Notes: generated by a model not told the origin, from the sequence alone. A DNA stretch of 64,000 bases from Eubacteriales bacterium (GCA_045657265.1 JAZOSU010000015.1:7826-71825); one strand, 5' to 3'; positions 4,491 through 57,007 are shown, numbered from the stretch's first letter. A program made the numbers and translations.

Positions 4491-4506
4491 TTTTAAAAAA
4501 TGAATA

Positions 4507-4672
4507 TATCTTTTCGGGGCGAGGCGAGATTCCTCACCGGTGGTATAGTCCACGAGCTTGAATGCATGATCGGGTGTAATTCCCGAACCGACGGTATAGT
4601 CCGGATGATAGAAAAGATTTGAATATTGTTTTTTGGTGCCCCTGCATTTTTTGTAGGGGCATTATTTTTTTT
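4507..4672 (+). promoter_or_regulatory. FMN riboswitch (RFN element) with intrinsic terminator
   Basis: Conserved RFN core read directly: TCTTTTCGGGGCGAGG..GAGATTCCTCACCGGTGGTATAGTCCACGAGC...GGGTGTAATTCCCGAACCGACGGTATAGTCCGGATGATAGAAAAGA. P1 pairs TCTTTTC with GAAAAGA. A 9-bp hairpin (4637-4661) and T-run follow. The downstream gene is a riboflavin-transporter-like S component. Confidence 0.9.
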
Positions 4673-4684
4673 GGAGCTGAAATT

Positions 4685-5221
4685 ATGAAAACAAAAACCT
4701 TAAAAAAATTGACTACAGCCGCAATGCTTACTGCACTTTCAGTTATTCTTGGTGTATTTGCATTTCCTATTTTTCCAAATGTCGCATTTCTGGAATATGA
4801 TATATGTGATGTAATTGTTCTTATTGTATCTTTTGCATTTGGACCTGTTTATGGAATTTTATCTTCCGTTACAGTTGCTGTGTTTCAGGCATTTATGCTT
4901 GATAAAAGCGGAATTTTCGGCTTTTTAATGAATATTATATCTACAGTTTCATTTGTGTTACCTGCAGCACTTGTTTATTTAAAAAATAAAACTAAAAAAG
5001 GCGCAGCTTTCGCTCTTTCTTGCGGAGTTGTAGTTATGACAATAATTATGATATTGTTTAATTACCTTGTCACTCCACATTTTATGGGCGTTCCTGTAAG
5101 CGTTGTTCATTCTCTTATGCCATATATAGCAGGATTTAATGTTGTAAAAGCAGTTGCTAATTCAATTATTACTTTTTTTGTGTATAAACATATCGGTAAA
5201 ATAATAAAGAAATTTAATTGA
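4685..5221 (+). CDS. ribU: ECF-transporter S component, riboflavin transporter-like
   Basis: 178 aa from ATG 4685; the track ORF start at 4619 lies inside the riboswitch terminator. Multi-TM protein directly controlled by the FMN riboswitch. The substrate is inferred from that linkage. Confidence 0.7.
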   Translation: MKTKTLKKLTTAAMLTALSVILGVFAFPIFPNVAFLEYDICDVIVLIVSFAFGPVYGILSSVTVAVFQAFMLDKSGIFGFLMNIISTVSFVLPAALVYLKNKTKKGAAFALSCGVVVMTIIMILFNYLVTPHFMGVPVSVVHSLMPYIAGFNVVKAVANSIITFFVYKHIGKIIKKFN

Positions 5222-5793: not shown

Positions 5794-5816
5794 ATCATAG
5801 CTTAATAGAATATAAC

Positions 5817-5934
5817 TTTTATCAAGAGCGGCGGAGGGACAGGCCCTGTGAAGCCCGACAACCTGCATTATGTAAGGTGTTAATTCCTGATAGATAAAAT
5901 TTTGTCCGCTCTTACTGTGTAAGAGCGGTTTTTT
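5817..5934 (+). promoter_or_regulatory. SAM-I (S-box) riboswitch with intrinsic terminator
   Basis: TTATCAAGAGCGGCGGAGGGACAGGCCCTGTGAAGCCCGACAACC...GGTGTTAATTCCTGATAGATAA matches the S-box core. P1 pairs TTTTATC with GATAAAA. Terminator: CCGCTCTTAC/GTAAGAGCGG (5906-5928) plus T6. AAGAGCGG occurs both in the aptamer (5825-5832) and in the 3' terminator arm, giving the antiterminator alternative. Located upstream of metK. Confidence 0.92.
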
Positions 5935-10058: not shown

Positions 10059-10723
10059 TGTCTCTTGTATATCCTCAGCGCTGTATTTTTTGCGGAAACG
10101 TCGTTAAAGATAAAATTATAATTTGTAATGACTGCATTGGCAGTGTAAAACCTATAGGAGATAATATCTGTTTAAGCTGTGGAGTTGATAAAGAATATTG
10201 TAGTTGTAAAGTGGGTGACTTTGCTTTTTTACGGCATATATCCTATTTTTATTATGAAGGCGCTGTTAAAACACTTGTTAAAAGGTTTAAATTCCGTAAT
10301 ACGCCTCAGCTTGTGTCAATTATGTCAGATTATATGGCAAACAGAATAAATGACAAGTATAATGACTTTACATTTGATTTTATAACTTTTGTGCCAAGCA
10401 GTTTAATGAAATTTCTGATTAGAGGGTATAATCCCGCGCAGTTACTTGCTCAGAATATATCGAAAAAGCTTGACATACCTCTTAAAAACGTTTTAGGTGC
10501 AAAGTTCAGACTGCTTCCTCAAAAATATAGTAAACAGAACAGACGAAAAAGTGTAAAAGGGAAGTTTTATGTCAAAAATATCGATATAAAAGACAAACGC
10601 ATTTTGCTTATCGACGATATTATGACAAGCGGCTCAACTATGAGCGAGTGTGCCCGTGTTATGAAAAGAGCGGGGGCTAAAGAAATTTTGTGTTCAACTT
10701 TTGCAATTACTTGTAAAAAATAA
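10058..10723 (+). CDS. comFC: ComF family protein (phosphoribosyltransferase fold)
   Basis: 221 aa. N-terminal CxxC...CxxC zinc finger, PRTase motif ILLIDDIMTSGST. 1-nt overlap with the recD2 stop. Confidence 0.85.
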   Translation: MSLVYPQRCIFCGNVVKDKIIICNDCIGSVKPIGDNICLSCGVDKEYCSCKVGDFAFLRHISYFYYEGAVKTLVKRFKFRNTPQLVSIMSDYMANRINDKYNDFTFDFITFVPSSLMKFLIRGYNPAQLLAQNISKKLDIPLKNVLGAKFRLLPQKYSKQNRRKSVKGKFYVKNIDIKDKRILLIDDIMTSGSTMSECARVMKRAGAKEILCSTFAITCKK

Positions 10724-53629: not shown

Positions 53630-54574
53630 ATGAAAAAACAGGAATACAGGCCTGAGGGTATTTATGACAAAAATGATGCAATGTACTTTGGTGGAACAAT
53701 GGGGCTCATGAGAGCAATGTCTGAGGGGAAAATACTTCAAGCAAGATGTCTTATGTGTGATACTGAACATAATTTGCATTTAAAACTTGGTGATATTAAA
53801 GCAATAATACCCAGGGAAGAGACTGCTATAGGCATAAAAGAAAACACAGTTAAAGACGTAGCTATTATAACCAGAGTGAATAAAATGGTGAGTTTTAAAA
53901 TTACCGAAATATCCGAGCAAAACGGTCAGACTGTTGCTTATCTTTCCAGACGAGCAGCTCAGATTGAGTGTCAGGAGTATATATATTCAAATTTTATGTC
54001 GGGTGACGTTATTGATGCACGTATAACTCATCTTGAACAATTTGGTGCGTTTGTTGACATTGGATGTGGAATTGTTTCAATGATTTCTATTGATAATATA
54101 TCTGTTTCAAGAATAGAACATCCTAAAAATAGATTTTCATTGGGTATGGATATTAAAGCAATTATAAAATCGGTTGATAAAAAACAGAAAAGAATAGTAC
54201 TGTCACACAAAGAGTTGCTTGGAACGTGGAGTGAAAATGCGCAACGCTTTTCACCTGGAGAAACGGTATCCGGCATTGTACGAAGTGTTGAGAGCTATGG
54301 TATTTTTATAGAACTTACTCCTAATCTTGCAGGTCTTGCAGAACTGACTTCAGGAATTGAGGTGGGAGATAAAGTCAGCGTATTTATAAAAAGTATAATA
54401 CCTGAAAAAATGAAAATTAAACTTGCAATTGTAGATGTATCTCAGGATGCACCTGACTGTGAACCTTTTGAGTACATATATAGCAAAGATAAAATGGATT
54501 ATTGGAAATATTCACCGCCTCGTTGCGAAAAAAACGTAGAAACATTTTTTGGTCAGACTATTATCTGTGATTAA
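53630..54574 (+). CDS. S1 RNA-binding domain protein (two or three S1 repeats)
   Basis: 314 aa. GDVIDARITHLEQFGAFVDIG and GETVSGIVRSVESYGIFIEL are canonical S1 OB-fold starts. GGAGGG RBS. Confidence 0.85.
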   Translation: MKKQEYRPEGIYDKNDAMYFGGTMGLMRAMSEGKILQARCLMCDTEHNLHLKLGDIKAIIPREETAIGIKENTVKDVAIITRVNKMVSFKITEISEQNGQTVAYLSRRAAQIECQEYIYSNFMSGDVIDARITHLEQFGAFVDIGCGIVSMISIDNISVSRIEHPKNRFSLGMDIKAIIKSVDKKQKRIVLSHKELLGTWSENAQRFSPGETVSGIVRSVESYGIFIELTPNLAGLAELTSGIEVGDKVSVFIKSIIPEKMKIKLAIVDVSQDAPDCEPFEYIYSKDKMDYWKYSPPRCEKNVETFFGQTIICD

Positions 54575-54590
54575 AAAAATCAGCTCATAT

Positions 54591-54616
54591 GCGTTGTACC
54601 CTTAAGAGTACAACGC
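54591..54616. other. 9-bp stem hairpin GCGTTGTAC-N8-GTACAACGC
   Basis: Perfect 9-bp stem with no T-run after it. A degenerate copy (TTGTAC..GTGTACGA) lies near the right end at 54890-54912. Confidence 0.7.
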
Positions 54617-54618
54617 AG

Positions 54619-54790
54619 CGATATAAATCCCTTACGGGATTTTCGATATACCTAACGGCGCGATATAAGGCAAAGCCTTACGATATGTCCTTCGGACGAG
54701 AGGGGATTTATATCATATCACGTTTACAGTAAGGTAAACATATCGGATTTTACGAAGTAAAATATATCGAATTGCGAAGCAATATATCGT
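54619..54790. repeat. array of CGATAT(A)-plus-mini-hairpin units, 4 forward then 3-4 inverted
   Basis: Forward CGATAT(A/G) at 54619, 54644, 54661, 54681. Inverted ATATCG at 54740, 54764, 54784, plus a degenerate CATATCACG at 54714. Each unit carries a 4-7 bp hairpin: AAATCCC-TTAC-GGGATTT (54625-54642), TAAGGC-AAA-GCCTTA (54666-54680), GTCC-TTC-GGAC (54687-54697), GTTTAC-N6-GTAAAC (54722-54739), ATTTTAC-GAA-GTAAAAT (54747-54763), ATTGC-GAA-GCAAT (54771-54783). Confidence 0.8.
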
Positions 54791-54834
54791 GAATTACCAT
54801 TCTCAAAAATTTAATATATTCTTTTTTGGATAGC

Positions 54835-54890
54835 AAAACGGATGTGTAGAAATTCATGTAGAACTTCCACACATCCGTTTAATTTCTTAT
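54835..54890. terminator. intrinsic terminator hairpin usable on both strands
   Basis: 12-bp stem AAACGGATGTGT/ACACATCCGTTT (54836-54847 / 54869-54880) plus 3 more bp. Minus-strand tail is UUUUGCU (terminates the U32 gene). Plus-strand tail is UUUAAUUUCUU. Confidence 0.7.
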
Positions 54891-54932
54891 TGTACTTTCC
54901 TTTAGTGTACGACCTTTATTGAGCTGATTTTT

Positions 54933-56960
54933 TTAATATATTTCTTTAAAATATAATCCTCTTGTAAAGGGAGCATCGTATTCGCTTCCGTTTTTGATTT
55001 TATTTATGATTTTGAGGCATTCCTCTGCAGACTCATCGGTAAAATAAACAGATAAATAATCAGTGTTTTTGAGCAAGTTTTGTTTGTCACCCATATAGAT
55101 TGGTTGAGGGTTTAAAAGTCTGCTGTATTTTCTATCTTTGCAAAGTACGGTAAAAGGGTTATTATATCTGTCAAGTAATGTTCCTTTACATTCGCAAGAT
55201 CCGCATCCTGTCTTGCTTTTTATAGGGCAGTTCCGGAATGTCATAAGTGGCATTTTACCATAAACAATAAGTCCGCAAGGAATTGATTTTTTTAAATTAT
55301 TGAACGAATCCAGACTTGTTTCAAAGGTGATTTCAGTCTCGTTTAAGCCGAGTTTTCGGTATTCGTCAAGAGAAATACTGTTTAGAATGTTAAGGCTGAA
55401 ACTACCGATTGTTTTGAAACCGAATTTTTTTGCGAGTTCAAATGCATAAAGATTAGTGGCATAAATTTCGGTTATTCCCGCATCTTTTAATCTTGCGAGT
55501 TTTTTCTCAGCATCTTTATTATTAAACATCAGAGTAGGTAACTCTGCGATGAGCTTACCTTTGTATTTCTCACACAAACCGATATCTTTTTCTATCTTTT
55601 CAAAATCAAGAATAATTTTATCAGTATTTGCAATTATCTGATTTTGATTTTCGTATCTTGCATATATAGGTTTTCTTGTTAATTTATCTGAACTGTTATA
55701 TTCTGATATATTAATGGAAAACTCGTTTGTCTGATATTTGTTTTGTGTACTTTTGATTTGTGCTAATTTTTCGAGAGCGCTTTTTCTCAGATTATTAAGA
55801 GAAGAAATAGCAAGAGACAAGCCGCCTTCAATGTCAAACGTAAAGTTGTTGAGATAGTATGGGGTACCACCACACTTTTCAAGACAACGTTTAACTATTT
55901 GTTCGTCAAGTTCTTTGTTTATTGCTTTTTCAGGAATATCTCCGTTTACGGTTATCTTTATGTCATCGCAGGTTACTGTCAACAATGTTTTTTTATTTGA
56001 TTTAATTTCAATGTACATATTGACATCAACCAAAGGATTTTCATTCCTGTATGTGTTAGCAATGGTTTTTAATATTGGTGCGGCAGATACTACGTCTTCT
56101 TTTGTGCGGTAACCAAACATATCAGCATTAATTTTGCTTTTGAAATAACCGTCTGTAAATCCACTTCTTGAAAATACTGCTTTAAGGGAATCAAAATCTA
56201 CGGGTTCATCACACAAAGCGTTTTTACAAGCATTTGTTGCAGCGCTTACATATTCCGGTCTTTTCATTCGGCCCTCAATTTTAGCAGAGTCAATTCCGAT
56301 GCTTTCTAAAAGTTTCAAGTTGTCAATGATCGATAAATCTTTTAGTGACAAAGCGTGAGAACGTTCGTCTGTTTTAAAATCCAGTCTGCAAGGCTGGGCA
56401 CATAAACCTCTGTTGGCACTGCGTTGACCTAATACGCTTGAAAGATAACATTGACCTGACATACACATACATAAAGCACCATGAACAAAAACTTCCATTT
56501 CAATATCAGTTGATTTTCTTATTTCAGTCAATTCATTTAACGAAAGTTCTCTGGCAGGAACTACTCTTGAAAAACCAAGTTTTTCCAACATATGAACTCC
56601 GTCAATGTTGTGTATTGTCATTTGTGTTGAAGCATGAATGGGCAGGGAAGGGGCAATATCTTTTGCAAGTCTGTACATTGCAAGATCCTGTACGATGATA
56701 GCGTCTGCTCCTGCATCTGCAACTTTTTTTATAGCTTCAATGGCTTTATTAATTTCCTTGTCTTTAATAAGAGTGTTTAACGTAATATAAACTTTTACAT
56801 TACGTGCATGACAATATTTAACTGTTTGTTCAAGGTCATCAAAGTTGTTTGCGTTTCGTCTTGCGTTAAAATCTTTCAAACCAAGATATACCGCGTTTGC
56901 ACCGCTCCTGACTGCTGCAATTAATTGTTCCTGACCTCCGACGGGGGATAGTATCTCCAT
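54933..56960 (-). CDS. U32-family peptidase-like protein
   Basis: 675 aa from ATG 56960, with GGAGAA 6 nt upstream. MEILSPVGG..., VFVHGALCMCMSGQCYLSS signature. Confidence 0.9.
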   Translation of the reverse strand: MEILSPVGGQEQLIAAVRSGANAVYLGLKDFNARRNANNFDDLEQTVKYCHARNVKVYITLNTLIKDKEINKAIEAIKKVADAGADAIIVQDLAMYRLAKDIAPSLPIHASTQMTIHNIDGVHMLEKLGFSRVVPARELSLNELTEIRKSTDIEMEVFVHGALCMCMSGQCYLSSVLGQRSANRGLCAQPCRLDFKTDERSHALSLKDLSIIDNLKLLESIGIDSAKIEGRMKRPEYVSAATNACKNALCDEPVDFDSLKAVFSRSGFTDGYFKSKINADMFGYRTKEDVVSAAPILKTIANTYRNENPLVDVNMYIEIKSNKKTLLTVTCDDIKITVNGDIPEKAINKELDEQIVKRCLEKCGGTPYYLNNFTFDIEGGLSLAISSLNNLRKSALEKLAQIKSTQNKYQTNEFSINISEYNSSDKLTRKPIYARYENQNQIIANTDKIILDFEKIEKDIGLCEKYKGKLIAELPTLMFNNKDAEKKLARLKDAGITEIYATNLYAFELAKKFGFKTIGSFSLNILNSISLDEYRKLGLNETEITFETSLDSFNNLKKSIPCGLIVYGKMPLMTFRNCPIKSKTGCGSCECKGTLLDRYNNPFTVLCKDRKYSRLLNPQPIYMGDKQNLLKNTDYLSVYFTDESAEECLKIINKIKNGSEYDAPFTRGLYFKEIY

Positions 56961-56970
56961 AAAATTCTCC

Positions 56971-57007
56971 AAAAAAAATCCGGAAATACAAAACGTATTA
57001 CCGGATT
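56971..57007 (-). terminator. intrinsic terminator after galE, abutting the U32-gene RBS
   Basis: 13-position stem (one mismatch) AATCCGGTAATAC/GTATTTCCGGATT on the minus strand, followed by U8. GGAGAA and ATG 56960 follow immediately. Confidence 0.65.

Follow-up and report, generated by a model that had tools for sequence, protein, structure and literature searches.

A solo dyad-symmetric hairpin-array element, apparently mobile and related to Gut-1, between convergent S1-domain and U32 peptidase genes

Introduction

Why is the spacer between two convergent genes of a Eubacteriales bacterium 358 nt long, and what is the array of short hairpins within it? The genes encode an S1-domain protein (53630 to 54574, plus strand, TAA stop codon at 54572 to 54574) and a U32 peptidase (54933 to 56972, minus strand, stop codon at 54933 to 54935), and they lie in a 64,000-nt stretch of DNA (GCA_045657265.1, JAZOSU010000015.1:7826-71825), here called the window. 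An earlier note on this sequence described an array of CGATAT hexamers and hairpins in the spacer and offered three options: a structured 3′ untranslated region (UTR) or small RNA, an iteron-like DNA array for a binding protein, or a decayed, nonautonomous element inserted into a terminator loop. The feature is a solo copy, without a gene, of a dispersed and apparently mobile hairpin-array element with dyad symmetry.

Family membership and insertion site

The CGATAT hairpin-array family is defined in the present analysis. Read 5′ to 3′, its consensus consists of a hairpin designated H0, four left-arm units, GAGAG, GGRATTTATATC, and a series of ATATCG hexamers with hairpins between them. A family profile built without the window (nhmmer) matched 54618 to 54789 over profile positions 1 to 172 of 172 (E 9.9e-31). 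This was the sole strong match to the profile in the 64-kb window, which has no second copy. In addition to the full-length match, the window copy has the four plus four hexamers of the family (seven of the eight exact), its first hairpin (hp1), and a center complementary to its first unit. The feature is almost certainly an inserted solo member of this family.

Two syntenic relatives indicate what the spacer looks like when the element is not there. The S1 proteins of L081 and L083 are 78% and 75% identical to that of the window, gene order is conserved, and the S1/U32 spacers are 32 nt and 60 nt, respectively, each a simple hairpin, with A- and T-tract flanks in L081. The L081 spacer, AAAAATTGGCTGTGA-atgta-TCACAGCCAATTTTT, has a 5-nt loop, abuts both stop codons, and is orthologous to an inverted repeat in the window whose left half (ATTAAAAAAATCAGCTCA, 54570 to 54587) contains the S1-gene stop codon and whose right half (TGAGCTGATTTTTTTAAT, 54920 to 54937) contains the U32-gene stop codon. 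The perfect 15-bp repeat reported at the stop codons in the earlier note is real and perfect but is 18 bp long and covers both of them. With an A tract, stem, and T tract between convergent stop codons, and with counterparts in the orthologous spacers, this repeat has the properties of an intrinsic bidirectional terminator, and AAAAAAATCAGCTCA...TGAGCTGATTTTTTT in the window corresponds to a terminator of the L081 type with ca. 332 nt (54588 to 54919) in its loop.

Because the closest syntenic relatives hold only a 32- to 60-nt bidirectional terminator, these ca. 332 nt, which are missing from the L081 and L083 spacers and consist of H0, the two arms of the hairpin array, and a tail of 130 nt (plus strand), are, on this comparison, an insertion in the loop of an ordinary bidirectional terminator. 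The proposal of a nonautonomous element in a terminator loop is therefore borne out by the empty sites in L081 and L083 and by the dispersed, multicopy family described below. Eighty genome loci encoding more distant relatives of the S1 protein lacked the array and had other genes downstream, and so they provided no orthologous spacer. Termination of both genes is probably preserved despite the insert because the host stem is still complementary at 18 of 18 positions and the insert carries a hairpin of its own at 54836 to 54880.

Structure of the array

Exact CGATAT hexamers are found on the plus strand at 54619, 54644, 54661, and 54681, and ATATCG (CGATAT on the minus strand) is found at 54740, 54764, and 54784. 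These seven, of 52 exact CGATAT/ATATCG sites in the window, lie within 171 nt (54619 to 54789), compared with 26.5 sites in shuffles of the whole window, or ca. 0.07 per 171 nt. The eighth hexamer is degenerate (ATATCA, 54715 to 54720). The four forward and three inverted units previously counted are thus exact, and the degenerate one is at 54715 rather than 54714.

A short hairpin lies flush against every hexamer. H0 (TGCGTTGTAC / GTACAACGCA; 54590 to 54617; 10 bp with an 8-nt loop) is immediately 5′ of the first hexamer. The left arm (54618 to 54697) consists of four units of N-CGATAT plus a flush hairpin, with hp1 at 54625 to 54642, the weak hp2 at 54650 to 54659, hp3 at 54667 to 54679, and hp4 at 54687 to 54697. 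The center (54698 to 54714) is GAGAG followed by GGGATTTATATC (54703 to 54714), a 12-nt exact complement of GATATAAATCCC in unit 1 (54620 to 54631). In the right arm (54715 to 54789) ATATCA is followed by hp5 (54722 to 54739), hp6 (54747 to 54763), and hp7 (ATTGC-GAA-GCAAT, 54771 to 54783), set between the ATATCG hexamers, the last of which occupies 54784 to 54789. All of these coordinates are for the plus strand.

The remainder of the insert is an A/T-rich tail (54790 to 54919; 29% G+C) with no relatives among the fetched loci and no coding remnant. The hairpin within it at 54836 to 54880, which had been described as a good terminator, is real, with 20-nt arms that are 90% complementary and AAAA and TTT(AA)TTT flanks that make it terminator-like on both strands, but a consensus terminator scan did not call it.

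The window copy is intact, not decayed as had been suggested: seven of its eight hexamers and all seven array hairpins are present, hp2 weakly. The earlier description of the array was accurate apart from small details of coordinates and of G+C content, which was computed as 38.9% in the core, slightly below the hand-counted 40 to 45%, versus 34.6% in the window. Folding was far more stable than that of shuffled sequences both as RNA (z = -8.8 for the plus strand and -11.2 for the minus strand) and, for the core, as DNA (z = -5.75 and -6.69 for the two strands).

Covariation and strand asymmetry

Throughout the family the stems begin flush with the hexamers. Stem pairs 1 to 4 are Watson-Crick at frequencies of 0.89 to 1.00, with three to four pair types each, versus 0.3 to 0.45 for shuffled partners, and hp1 is the only hairpin conserved in sequence. 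RNAalifold applied to 37 relatives yielded a ladder of four helices (L1-R4, L2-R3, L3-R2, and L4-R1) with seven side hairpins, and 27 of the 57 pairs had compensatory changes. The nested four-helix fold proposed previously agrees with this ladder but is beyond proof by covariation: all eight hexamers are invariant across 37 diverse copies, so covariation is silent on the hexamer helices.

The 12-nt alternative pairing noted previously, which is exact in the window, covaries three ways across the family. The combination of unit 1 (Y), the 3′ strand of hp1 (R), and the center (R) was C/G/G in 35 copies and T/A/A in 34, with one exception, and the alternative pairing is therefore a family feature. 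The base beside the hexamer is uniform within an element, which is of the TTTT/AAAA, GGGG/CCCC, or GGAA type. Position-specific covariation of this base was discarded as confounded because the base is constant throughout an element.

The two arms differ in the strand that folds better. On the plus strand of the element, left-arm stems have 15 A·C versus 5 G·T oppositions, and right-arm stems have 23 G·T versus 5 A·C. When read as a hairpin followed by ATATCG, a sense that falls on the plus strand for the right arm and the minus strand for the left arm, both arms have the same spectrum of loops (177 triloops and 127 tetraloops), including 87 C-GNA-G and 67 C-GNNA-G loops. There is no GNRA bias among the tetraloops (33 GTCA, GCCA, and GTTA versus 22 GNRA). 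The G·T wobbles and the C-GNA-G loops indicate that the arms fold best on opposite strands, and selection acts on the right arm as the plus strand and on the left arm as the minus strand. C-GNA-G triloops are a hallmark of highly stable DNA mini-hairpins. Together with the signs of selection on both strands, these loops slightly favor folded DNA as the recognized form; a role for RNA in the leader of the partner protein's own mRNA is nearly as likely.

Distribution of the family

The family was found at more than 120 metagenome loci (by pattern scan, among the matches listed) and 6 viral loci, and the family counts given here are based on 129 distinct copies drawn from among the matches listed. 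It is widespread in Clostridia of the gut and rumen and in their phages. Scans for patterns taken from the window recovered true relatives in phage-like contigs. L121 has one copy between the terminase and portal genes and another before the major head gene; L222 has three copies; L108 and L220 each have a copy after a replication-initiator gene; and the element is also present in L221 and L223. Matches to the pattern CGATATG..GAGAGGRATTT were mostly due to chance, and the real ones were in L108, L220, and L121. A blastn search of plasmid and phage record collections with the region gave no match.

The layout of the window copy is typical. Exactly four units of N-CGATAT plus a hairpin form the left arm in 102 of the 129 copies, and the right arm has four ATATCG hexamers in 54 copies and five in 20. 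A hairpin of the H0 type (at least 6 bp, ending at most 5 nt from the first hexamer) precedes 61 of 106 members, versus 18 of 106 at a control position. One 2.4-kb contig is unusually dense, with five successive arms of 6, 4, 8, 3, and 3 hexamers (L298, 377 to 1148). There are also copies with only a left arm (L235, two sites in L240, L241, and positions 5009 and 7058 in L222), in which GAGA... is followed directly by a Shine-Dalgarno sequence and the start of an unrelated gene, such as one for an ASCH-domain, alcohol dehydrogenase-like, or acetyltransferase-like protein or a Prp protease. The GAGAGG after hp4 may double as a ribosome-binding site.

Partner gene

A PF05635 gene is directly downstream of 12 of the 129 unique copies, and tblastn identified 21 such loci, about one copy in six, compared with one PF05635 gene in 80 control loci. 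The gene encodes 115 amino acids and starts 12 to 20 nt after the last hexamer, and the genes upstream of the gene-bearing copies are varied (carB-like, rumA-like, and others). Its product belongs to PF05635 (23S rRNA-intervening sequence protein) and TIGR02436 (four helix bundle protein), matches PDB entry 2RLD, which has five chains (E 7.6e-40), and has no match in PADLOC. PF05635 is the Avd family of diversity-generating retroelements (PMC10053308). Neither tblastn nor the family hidden Markov model applied to a six-frame translation detected a PF05635 gene in the 64-kb window, and the window copy is therefore solo and presumably nonautonomous. In L241, L232, and L322 the gene is bracketed by arms, following a right arm and preceding a left one.

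The association was also apparent when the search began with the protein. All eight viral loci found in this way that included upstream sequence had short-repeat arrays upstream of the gene, five of them hairpin-heptamer arrays and three plain runs. The arrays upstream of PF05635 genes included GTGATGT/ACATCAC in L225 (beside a CGATAT element), GTGAAAT/ATTTCAC in L344 and L345, (A/G)TGAAAT/ATTTCAT in L590, RTGATAT or GTGATAT in L347, L348, and L591, and a partial CGATAT array in L346. A different repeat tract accompanies the gene in L349 (950 to 1200). Plain TTGACAA-like runs (AATTGACAATTGACAATGGACAATTG) without hairpins were found in L350 (1050 to 1200 and 1450 to 1500), L351, and L037 (6280 to 6350), the last of which contains the PF05635 gene found among the control loci. 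Protein identity clusters by heptamer, with 50 to 76% identity within the CGATAT group, 66 to 76% within the xTGAAAT group, and 53 to 72% within the TTGACAA group, versus at most 61% between groups.

Viral scans with three heptamer patterns (CGATATR, GTGAAAT, and GTGATAT) were dominated, among the matches listed, by unrelated tandem repeats; filtering for hairpins left 8 candidate loci beyond the four known, among the matches listed, with no PF05635 gene in the fetched range. Searches of the literature for CGATAT hairpin repeats, PF05635, and TIGR02436 did not find such arrays.

Several further features of the gene-bearing loci were observed. Plain TTGACAA-like heptamer runs are inverted downstream of some PF05635 genes, and phage contig L222 has such a run (10230 to 10270) after its third CGATAT element. 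Inverted short-repeat tracts likewise bracket the four-helix-bundle gene in cultured organisms. On plasmid pTS1 of Treponema saccharophilum (L592, 300 to 640 and 985 to 1110), there are ca. 40 GTGAAAG-like repeats, inverted downstream of the gene, and in Monoglobus pectinilyticus (L593, 515 to 700 and 915 to 990) the gene with its inverted repeat flanks lies within a type I restriction system, having hsdS on one side and hsdR on the other. On phage contigs, tRNA genes and their terminator often immediately precede the array and four-helix-bundle gene (L345, 527 to 969; L347 and L348, ca. 880 to 960; L591, ca. 590 to 670; L225, 11763 to 12036). Varied, uncharacterized small genes usually follow the four-helix-bundle gene almost without a gap (L230, L331, L321, L241, L239, L283, and L252); some recur, for example, MFHITVEDLRAVYEQLKDKYNL..., giving the look of small cassette arrays.

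Relationship to Gut-1

The earlier note did not recognize the array as belonging to any RNA family. In an Rfam search nothing in the array region reached a gathering threshold, but the left arm of the window (54616 to 54691, plus strand) aligned with model positions 1 to 77 of Gut-1 (RF01706) at 21.6 bits (E 0.12), and the reverse arm scored 14.2 bits, relative to a gathering score of 50 bits. The array is thus a subthreshold relative of a known family. It has the Gut-1 layout of at least three variable hairpins separated by one fixed linker of 6 to 7 nt, except that the linker is CGAUAU rather than GUGAAAU. The only above-threshold Rfam matches in the 64-kb window were an FMN riboswitch (4506 to 4620, plus strand, 109.8 bits) and a SAM-I riboswitch (5816 to 5900, plus strand, 70.9 bits).

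Intermediates connect the two. The left arms of the GTGAAAT arrays in L344 and L345 and the RTGATAT array in L347 scored 72.9, 69.4, 62.6, and 60.5 bits against Gut-1, and their right arms scored 37 to 47 bits on the other strand. The two-arm layout and the downstream PF05635 gene are common to these arrays and the CGATAT family, and the protein clades join the subtypes. On these comparisons the window element is the CGATAT subtype of a superfamily of which Gut-1 is the GTGAAAT subtype.

Gut-1 was reported from human gut sequences and was rated as an RNA on the basis of covariation; the published motif is a single arm with no gene association and no named function (Weinberg et al. 2010, PMC2864571). 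The second arm is visible in the flanks of the Gut-1 seed rows, outside the published model. The window element shares with Gut-1 variable hairpins spaced by a fixed 6- to 7-nt linker and an occurrence in gut metagenomes, and it differs in the linker itself (CGAUAU versus GUGAAAU or GUGAUAU). The inverted second arm, the center that pairs with unit 1, H0, the PF05635 partner gene, and the insertion polymorphism are new relative to that report.

Mobility and genomic context

The filled site in the window and the empty sites in L081 and L083 constitute an insertion polymorphism. Other signs of mobility are near-identical copies, several copies on one contig, and two or three copies on single phage contigs. 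Copies of one sub-lineage share additional flanking sequence and have GGGGGTTTTTAA as a terminal inverted repeat. Near-identical copies of a sub-lineage (L233, L248, L259, L279, L281, L286, and other Ga0256405 contigs) have the left flank GGGGGTTTTTARATAATTTTTACCAAAG, the right flank ...GTCGAAACATC, and, in some copies, the inverted end TTAAAAACCCCC; several are on one 174-kb contig, which suggests that the sub-lineage spread recently.

Like miniature inverted-repeat transposable elements (MITEs), the element is short, noncoding, and multicopy, with presence/absence polymorphism. As a family it lacks terminal inverted repeats and a fixed-length target duplication, and the inverted repeat that flanks the window copy is the host terminator. 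Flanking inverted repeats were rejected as a family feature, terminal inverted repeats being restricted to one sub-lineage. A regular target-site duplication was also rejected: flanking direct repeats were found in 2 of ca. 66 copies and were unequal (18 and 11 nt). The two copies with direct repeats are in L121 (4322 to 4339 and 4519 to 4536) and L270. Reverse complementing the duplicated target of the L121 copy gives the 3′ half of its H0, as though some of the hairpin derived from the target.

The neighbors of the copies are diverse housekeeping genes, and the genes around the window copy are likewise housekeeping genes (prfA, a Sua5-family gene, and an epimerase/dehydratase gene). A link to the adjacent S1-domain gene or its protein was rejected because the element is missing from relatives of the S1 gene and the neighbors of other copies are unrelated. 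Since there is no cognate PF05635 gene within 64 kb, the window copy is most likely a passenger.

Comparison with known systems

Repetitive extragenic palindromic (REP) sequences, bacterial interspersed mosaic elements (BIMEs), and REPINs are extragenic and multicopy, with a hairpin next to a short single-stranded motif that is conserved; they occur in both orientations, often at gene 3′ ends, and may stabilize mRNA or act in single-stranded DNA. The window family resembles them in being multicopy extragenic repeats with a hairpin and a short conserved motif in both orientations. However, REP sequences and BIMEs have a conserved palindrome, whereas the stems of the window family differ within and between copies and the linkers are fixed, and its number of units is fixed at four plus four. 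No gene resembling a REP-associated tyrosine transposase (RAYT; IS200/IS605-like) was found among 148 neighbors of other copies.

Intervening sequences of 23S rRNA with a PF05635 reading frame lie in an rRNA helix and are excised by RNase III; they have complementary arms and are in the loop of a host hairpin, whose helix can still close. The protein family and the location in a host-hairpin loop are the same as those considered here, but the host in the window is an mRNA terminator rather than an rRNA helix, the window copy has no open reading frame, and no copy in rRNA turned up. We know of no report of hairpin-heptamer arrays in 23S intervening sequences.

In diversity-generating retroelements Avd acts with structured nucleic acid, and strand-specific, G-capped short DNA hairpins or cruciforms near the target matter for retrohoming. 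To our knowledge, hairpin-heptamer arrays have no counterpart in the retroelements that have been described. Their Avd is a homologue (PMC10053308) and a pentameric four-helix-bundle protein, but neither a reverse transcriptase nor template and variable repeats were found near any copy of the element.

The array hairpins, with stems of 4 to 7 bp, 3-nt GNA loops, and C·G closure (hp7 in the window is TTGCGAAGCAA), are similar to hyperstable d(C-GNA-G) mini-hairpins such as d(GCGAAGC) and the hairpin promoters of phage N4. Those hairpins, in contrast, are single and have other flanking signals. Integron attC sites, imperfect palindromes between small gene cassettes, are recognized as folded single-stranded DNA rather than by sequence and have short conserved boxes that pair, but the window family has four boxes and seven side hairpins and no R or L boxes, the array sequence in the window has no GTTRRRY box, and no integrase was found among the neighbors. 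The array also lacks the identical tandem repeats of ca. 30 to 36 nt of type III toxin-antitoxin RNAs and CRISPR arrays. Its units are 17 to 25 nt long, have only 6 to 7 nt in common, and are in two orientations, and CRISPR repeat models scored 12.2 and 16.7 bits against it.

Alternative explanations

The explanation that we favor, to which we assign about an even chance when it is taken as a whole, is that the solo element in the window belongs to a system that would operate as a folded single strand. The hairpins would be spacers that juxtapose the invariant hexamers, and the hexamers would be recognition sites of a pentameric, Avd-like four-helix-bundle protein (PF05635/TIGR02436), to which the folded platform would present them. 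That a four-helix-bundle protein recognizes the hexamers is, from the genomic association, a tentative proposal with an even chance at best. If DNA is the recognized form, the arrays would bound a small selfish cassette, one at each end, and copies without the gene would be its MITE-like derivatives. A broader version, that Gut-1-superfamily arrays, the CGATAT type included, and PF05635 pentamers constitute an unrecognized selfish cassette whose ends are read as folded single-stranded DNA, which settles in host hairpin loops (the terminator here and rRNA helices in 23S intervening sequences) and whose gene-less copies are MITE-like, is speculative and, in our judgment, unlikely.

Several observations weigh against this explanation. 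About five copies in six, that in the window included, have no PF05635 gene nearby; the congruent divergence of protein and heptamer could reflect plain coinheritance of a gene and its leader; the counts behind the strand asymmetry (15 versus 5 and 23 versus 5) are small; recombinases, transposases, and reverse transcriptases are not enriched among the 148 nearest proteins; direct repeats flank only 2 of ca. 66 copies; and, among the copies examined, only that in the window is inserted in a hairpin loop. Furthermore, the element follows the orientation of the upstream gene, as a role in RNA would also predict. According to crude calls of open reading frames, the upstream gene was codirectional with the element in 80 cases and opposite in 17, and where both neighbors had one direction they were codirectional with it in 24 cases and opposite in 4; convergent pairs like that in the window numbered 28.

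This orientation bias is a reason to consider a pure RNA role, the published interpretation of Gut-1, in which the element would be cotranscribed with the upstream gene, fold as the four-helix ladder or the 12-bp alternative, and serve as a structured 3′ UTR or leader that stabilizes mRNA or binds the four-helix-bundle protein, with autoregulation in complete copies. DNA copy number would then reflect the spread of a useful module. The Shine-Dalgarno sequence and partner-gene start 12 to 20 nt past the last hexamer, the left-arm-only copies directly before a ribosome-binding site and ATG, and the three-way covariation, which fits a switch between two folds, are all consistent with such a role, as is the action of Avd homologues with RNA in diversity-generating retroelements. 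The covariation-based rating of Gut-1 as an RNA (PMC2864571) points in the same direction. However, in the mRNA sense the left arm has more A·C mismatches than G·U pairs (15 versus 5), and its loops are UNC, the complements of GNA, and therefore selection has also acted on the strand that would not be transcribed. Triloops prevail and the tetraloops are not GNRA, plain helices do not need hexamers that never vary, and canonical terminators are not enriched after the element (8 of 60, versus 6 of 60 before it) and do not discriminate. We regard a pure RNA role, the main rival, as somewhat unlikely.

A REP/BIME- or MITE-like DNA repeat, moved by some other enzyme that reads a hairpin plus ATATCG on single-stranded DNA, perhaps an HUH single-strand transposase whose gene lies elsewhere, would make the four-helix-bundle gene a cargo or a frequent neighbor. 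The intergenic location of the copies, several per contig, the sub-lineage with extra flanks and the GGGGGTTTTTAA terminal inverted repeat, the insertion polymorphism at the window locus, and the units in both orientations, with DNA-like hairpins and a conserved flanking motif as in REP elements, which have a GTAG head, would all be expected. Yet within a genome REP elements keep the sequence of their stems, whereas here the stems all differ and the linker is fixed, no transposase-like family was found among 148 neighbors, there is no regular target-site duplication, and heptamer type and four-helix-bundle protein clade go together. This alternative appears improbable.

The earlier proposal of an iteron-like array, extended to centromere- or operator-like arrays of double-stranded binding sites, would treat the hairpins as incidental palindromes. 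Eight identical hexamers in two inverted sets, and a hexamer-adjacent base that is constant per element (TTTT/AAAA or GGGG/CCCC), are what such an array might contain. Covariation of the stems requires single strands, however, and leaves a double-stranded array unsupported: the spacer palindromes vary freely in sequence while pairing is kept, which is needless for duplex DNA, and G·T exceeds A·C about 4 to 1 in the unit sense. Nor does the absence of the element from close relatives at a housekeeping locus, or the lack of a blastn match in plasmid or phage record collections, suit this interpretation, which we consider very improbable.

Implications

In annotation, the over-long convergent spacer can be put down to a passenger insertion, not to a regulator specific to this locus. 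For Gut-1, an orphan RNA listed in Rfam since 2010 as found only in the human gut, with no partner and no proposed function, the relatives of the window element provide a connection with PF05635, in which the published motif makes up one half of an element with dyad symmetry and the linker subtypes track clades of the Avd-like protein encoded alongside. PF05635/TIGR02436 proteins are very common, and we know of no role for them outside diversity-generating retroelements. The link between Gut-1 and PF05635 pairs a small protein with a small folded nucleic acid in a way that can be tested directly, and it may offer a handle on how PF05635-bearing intervening sequences reached hairpin loops.

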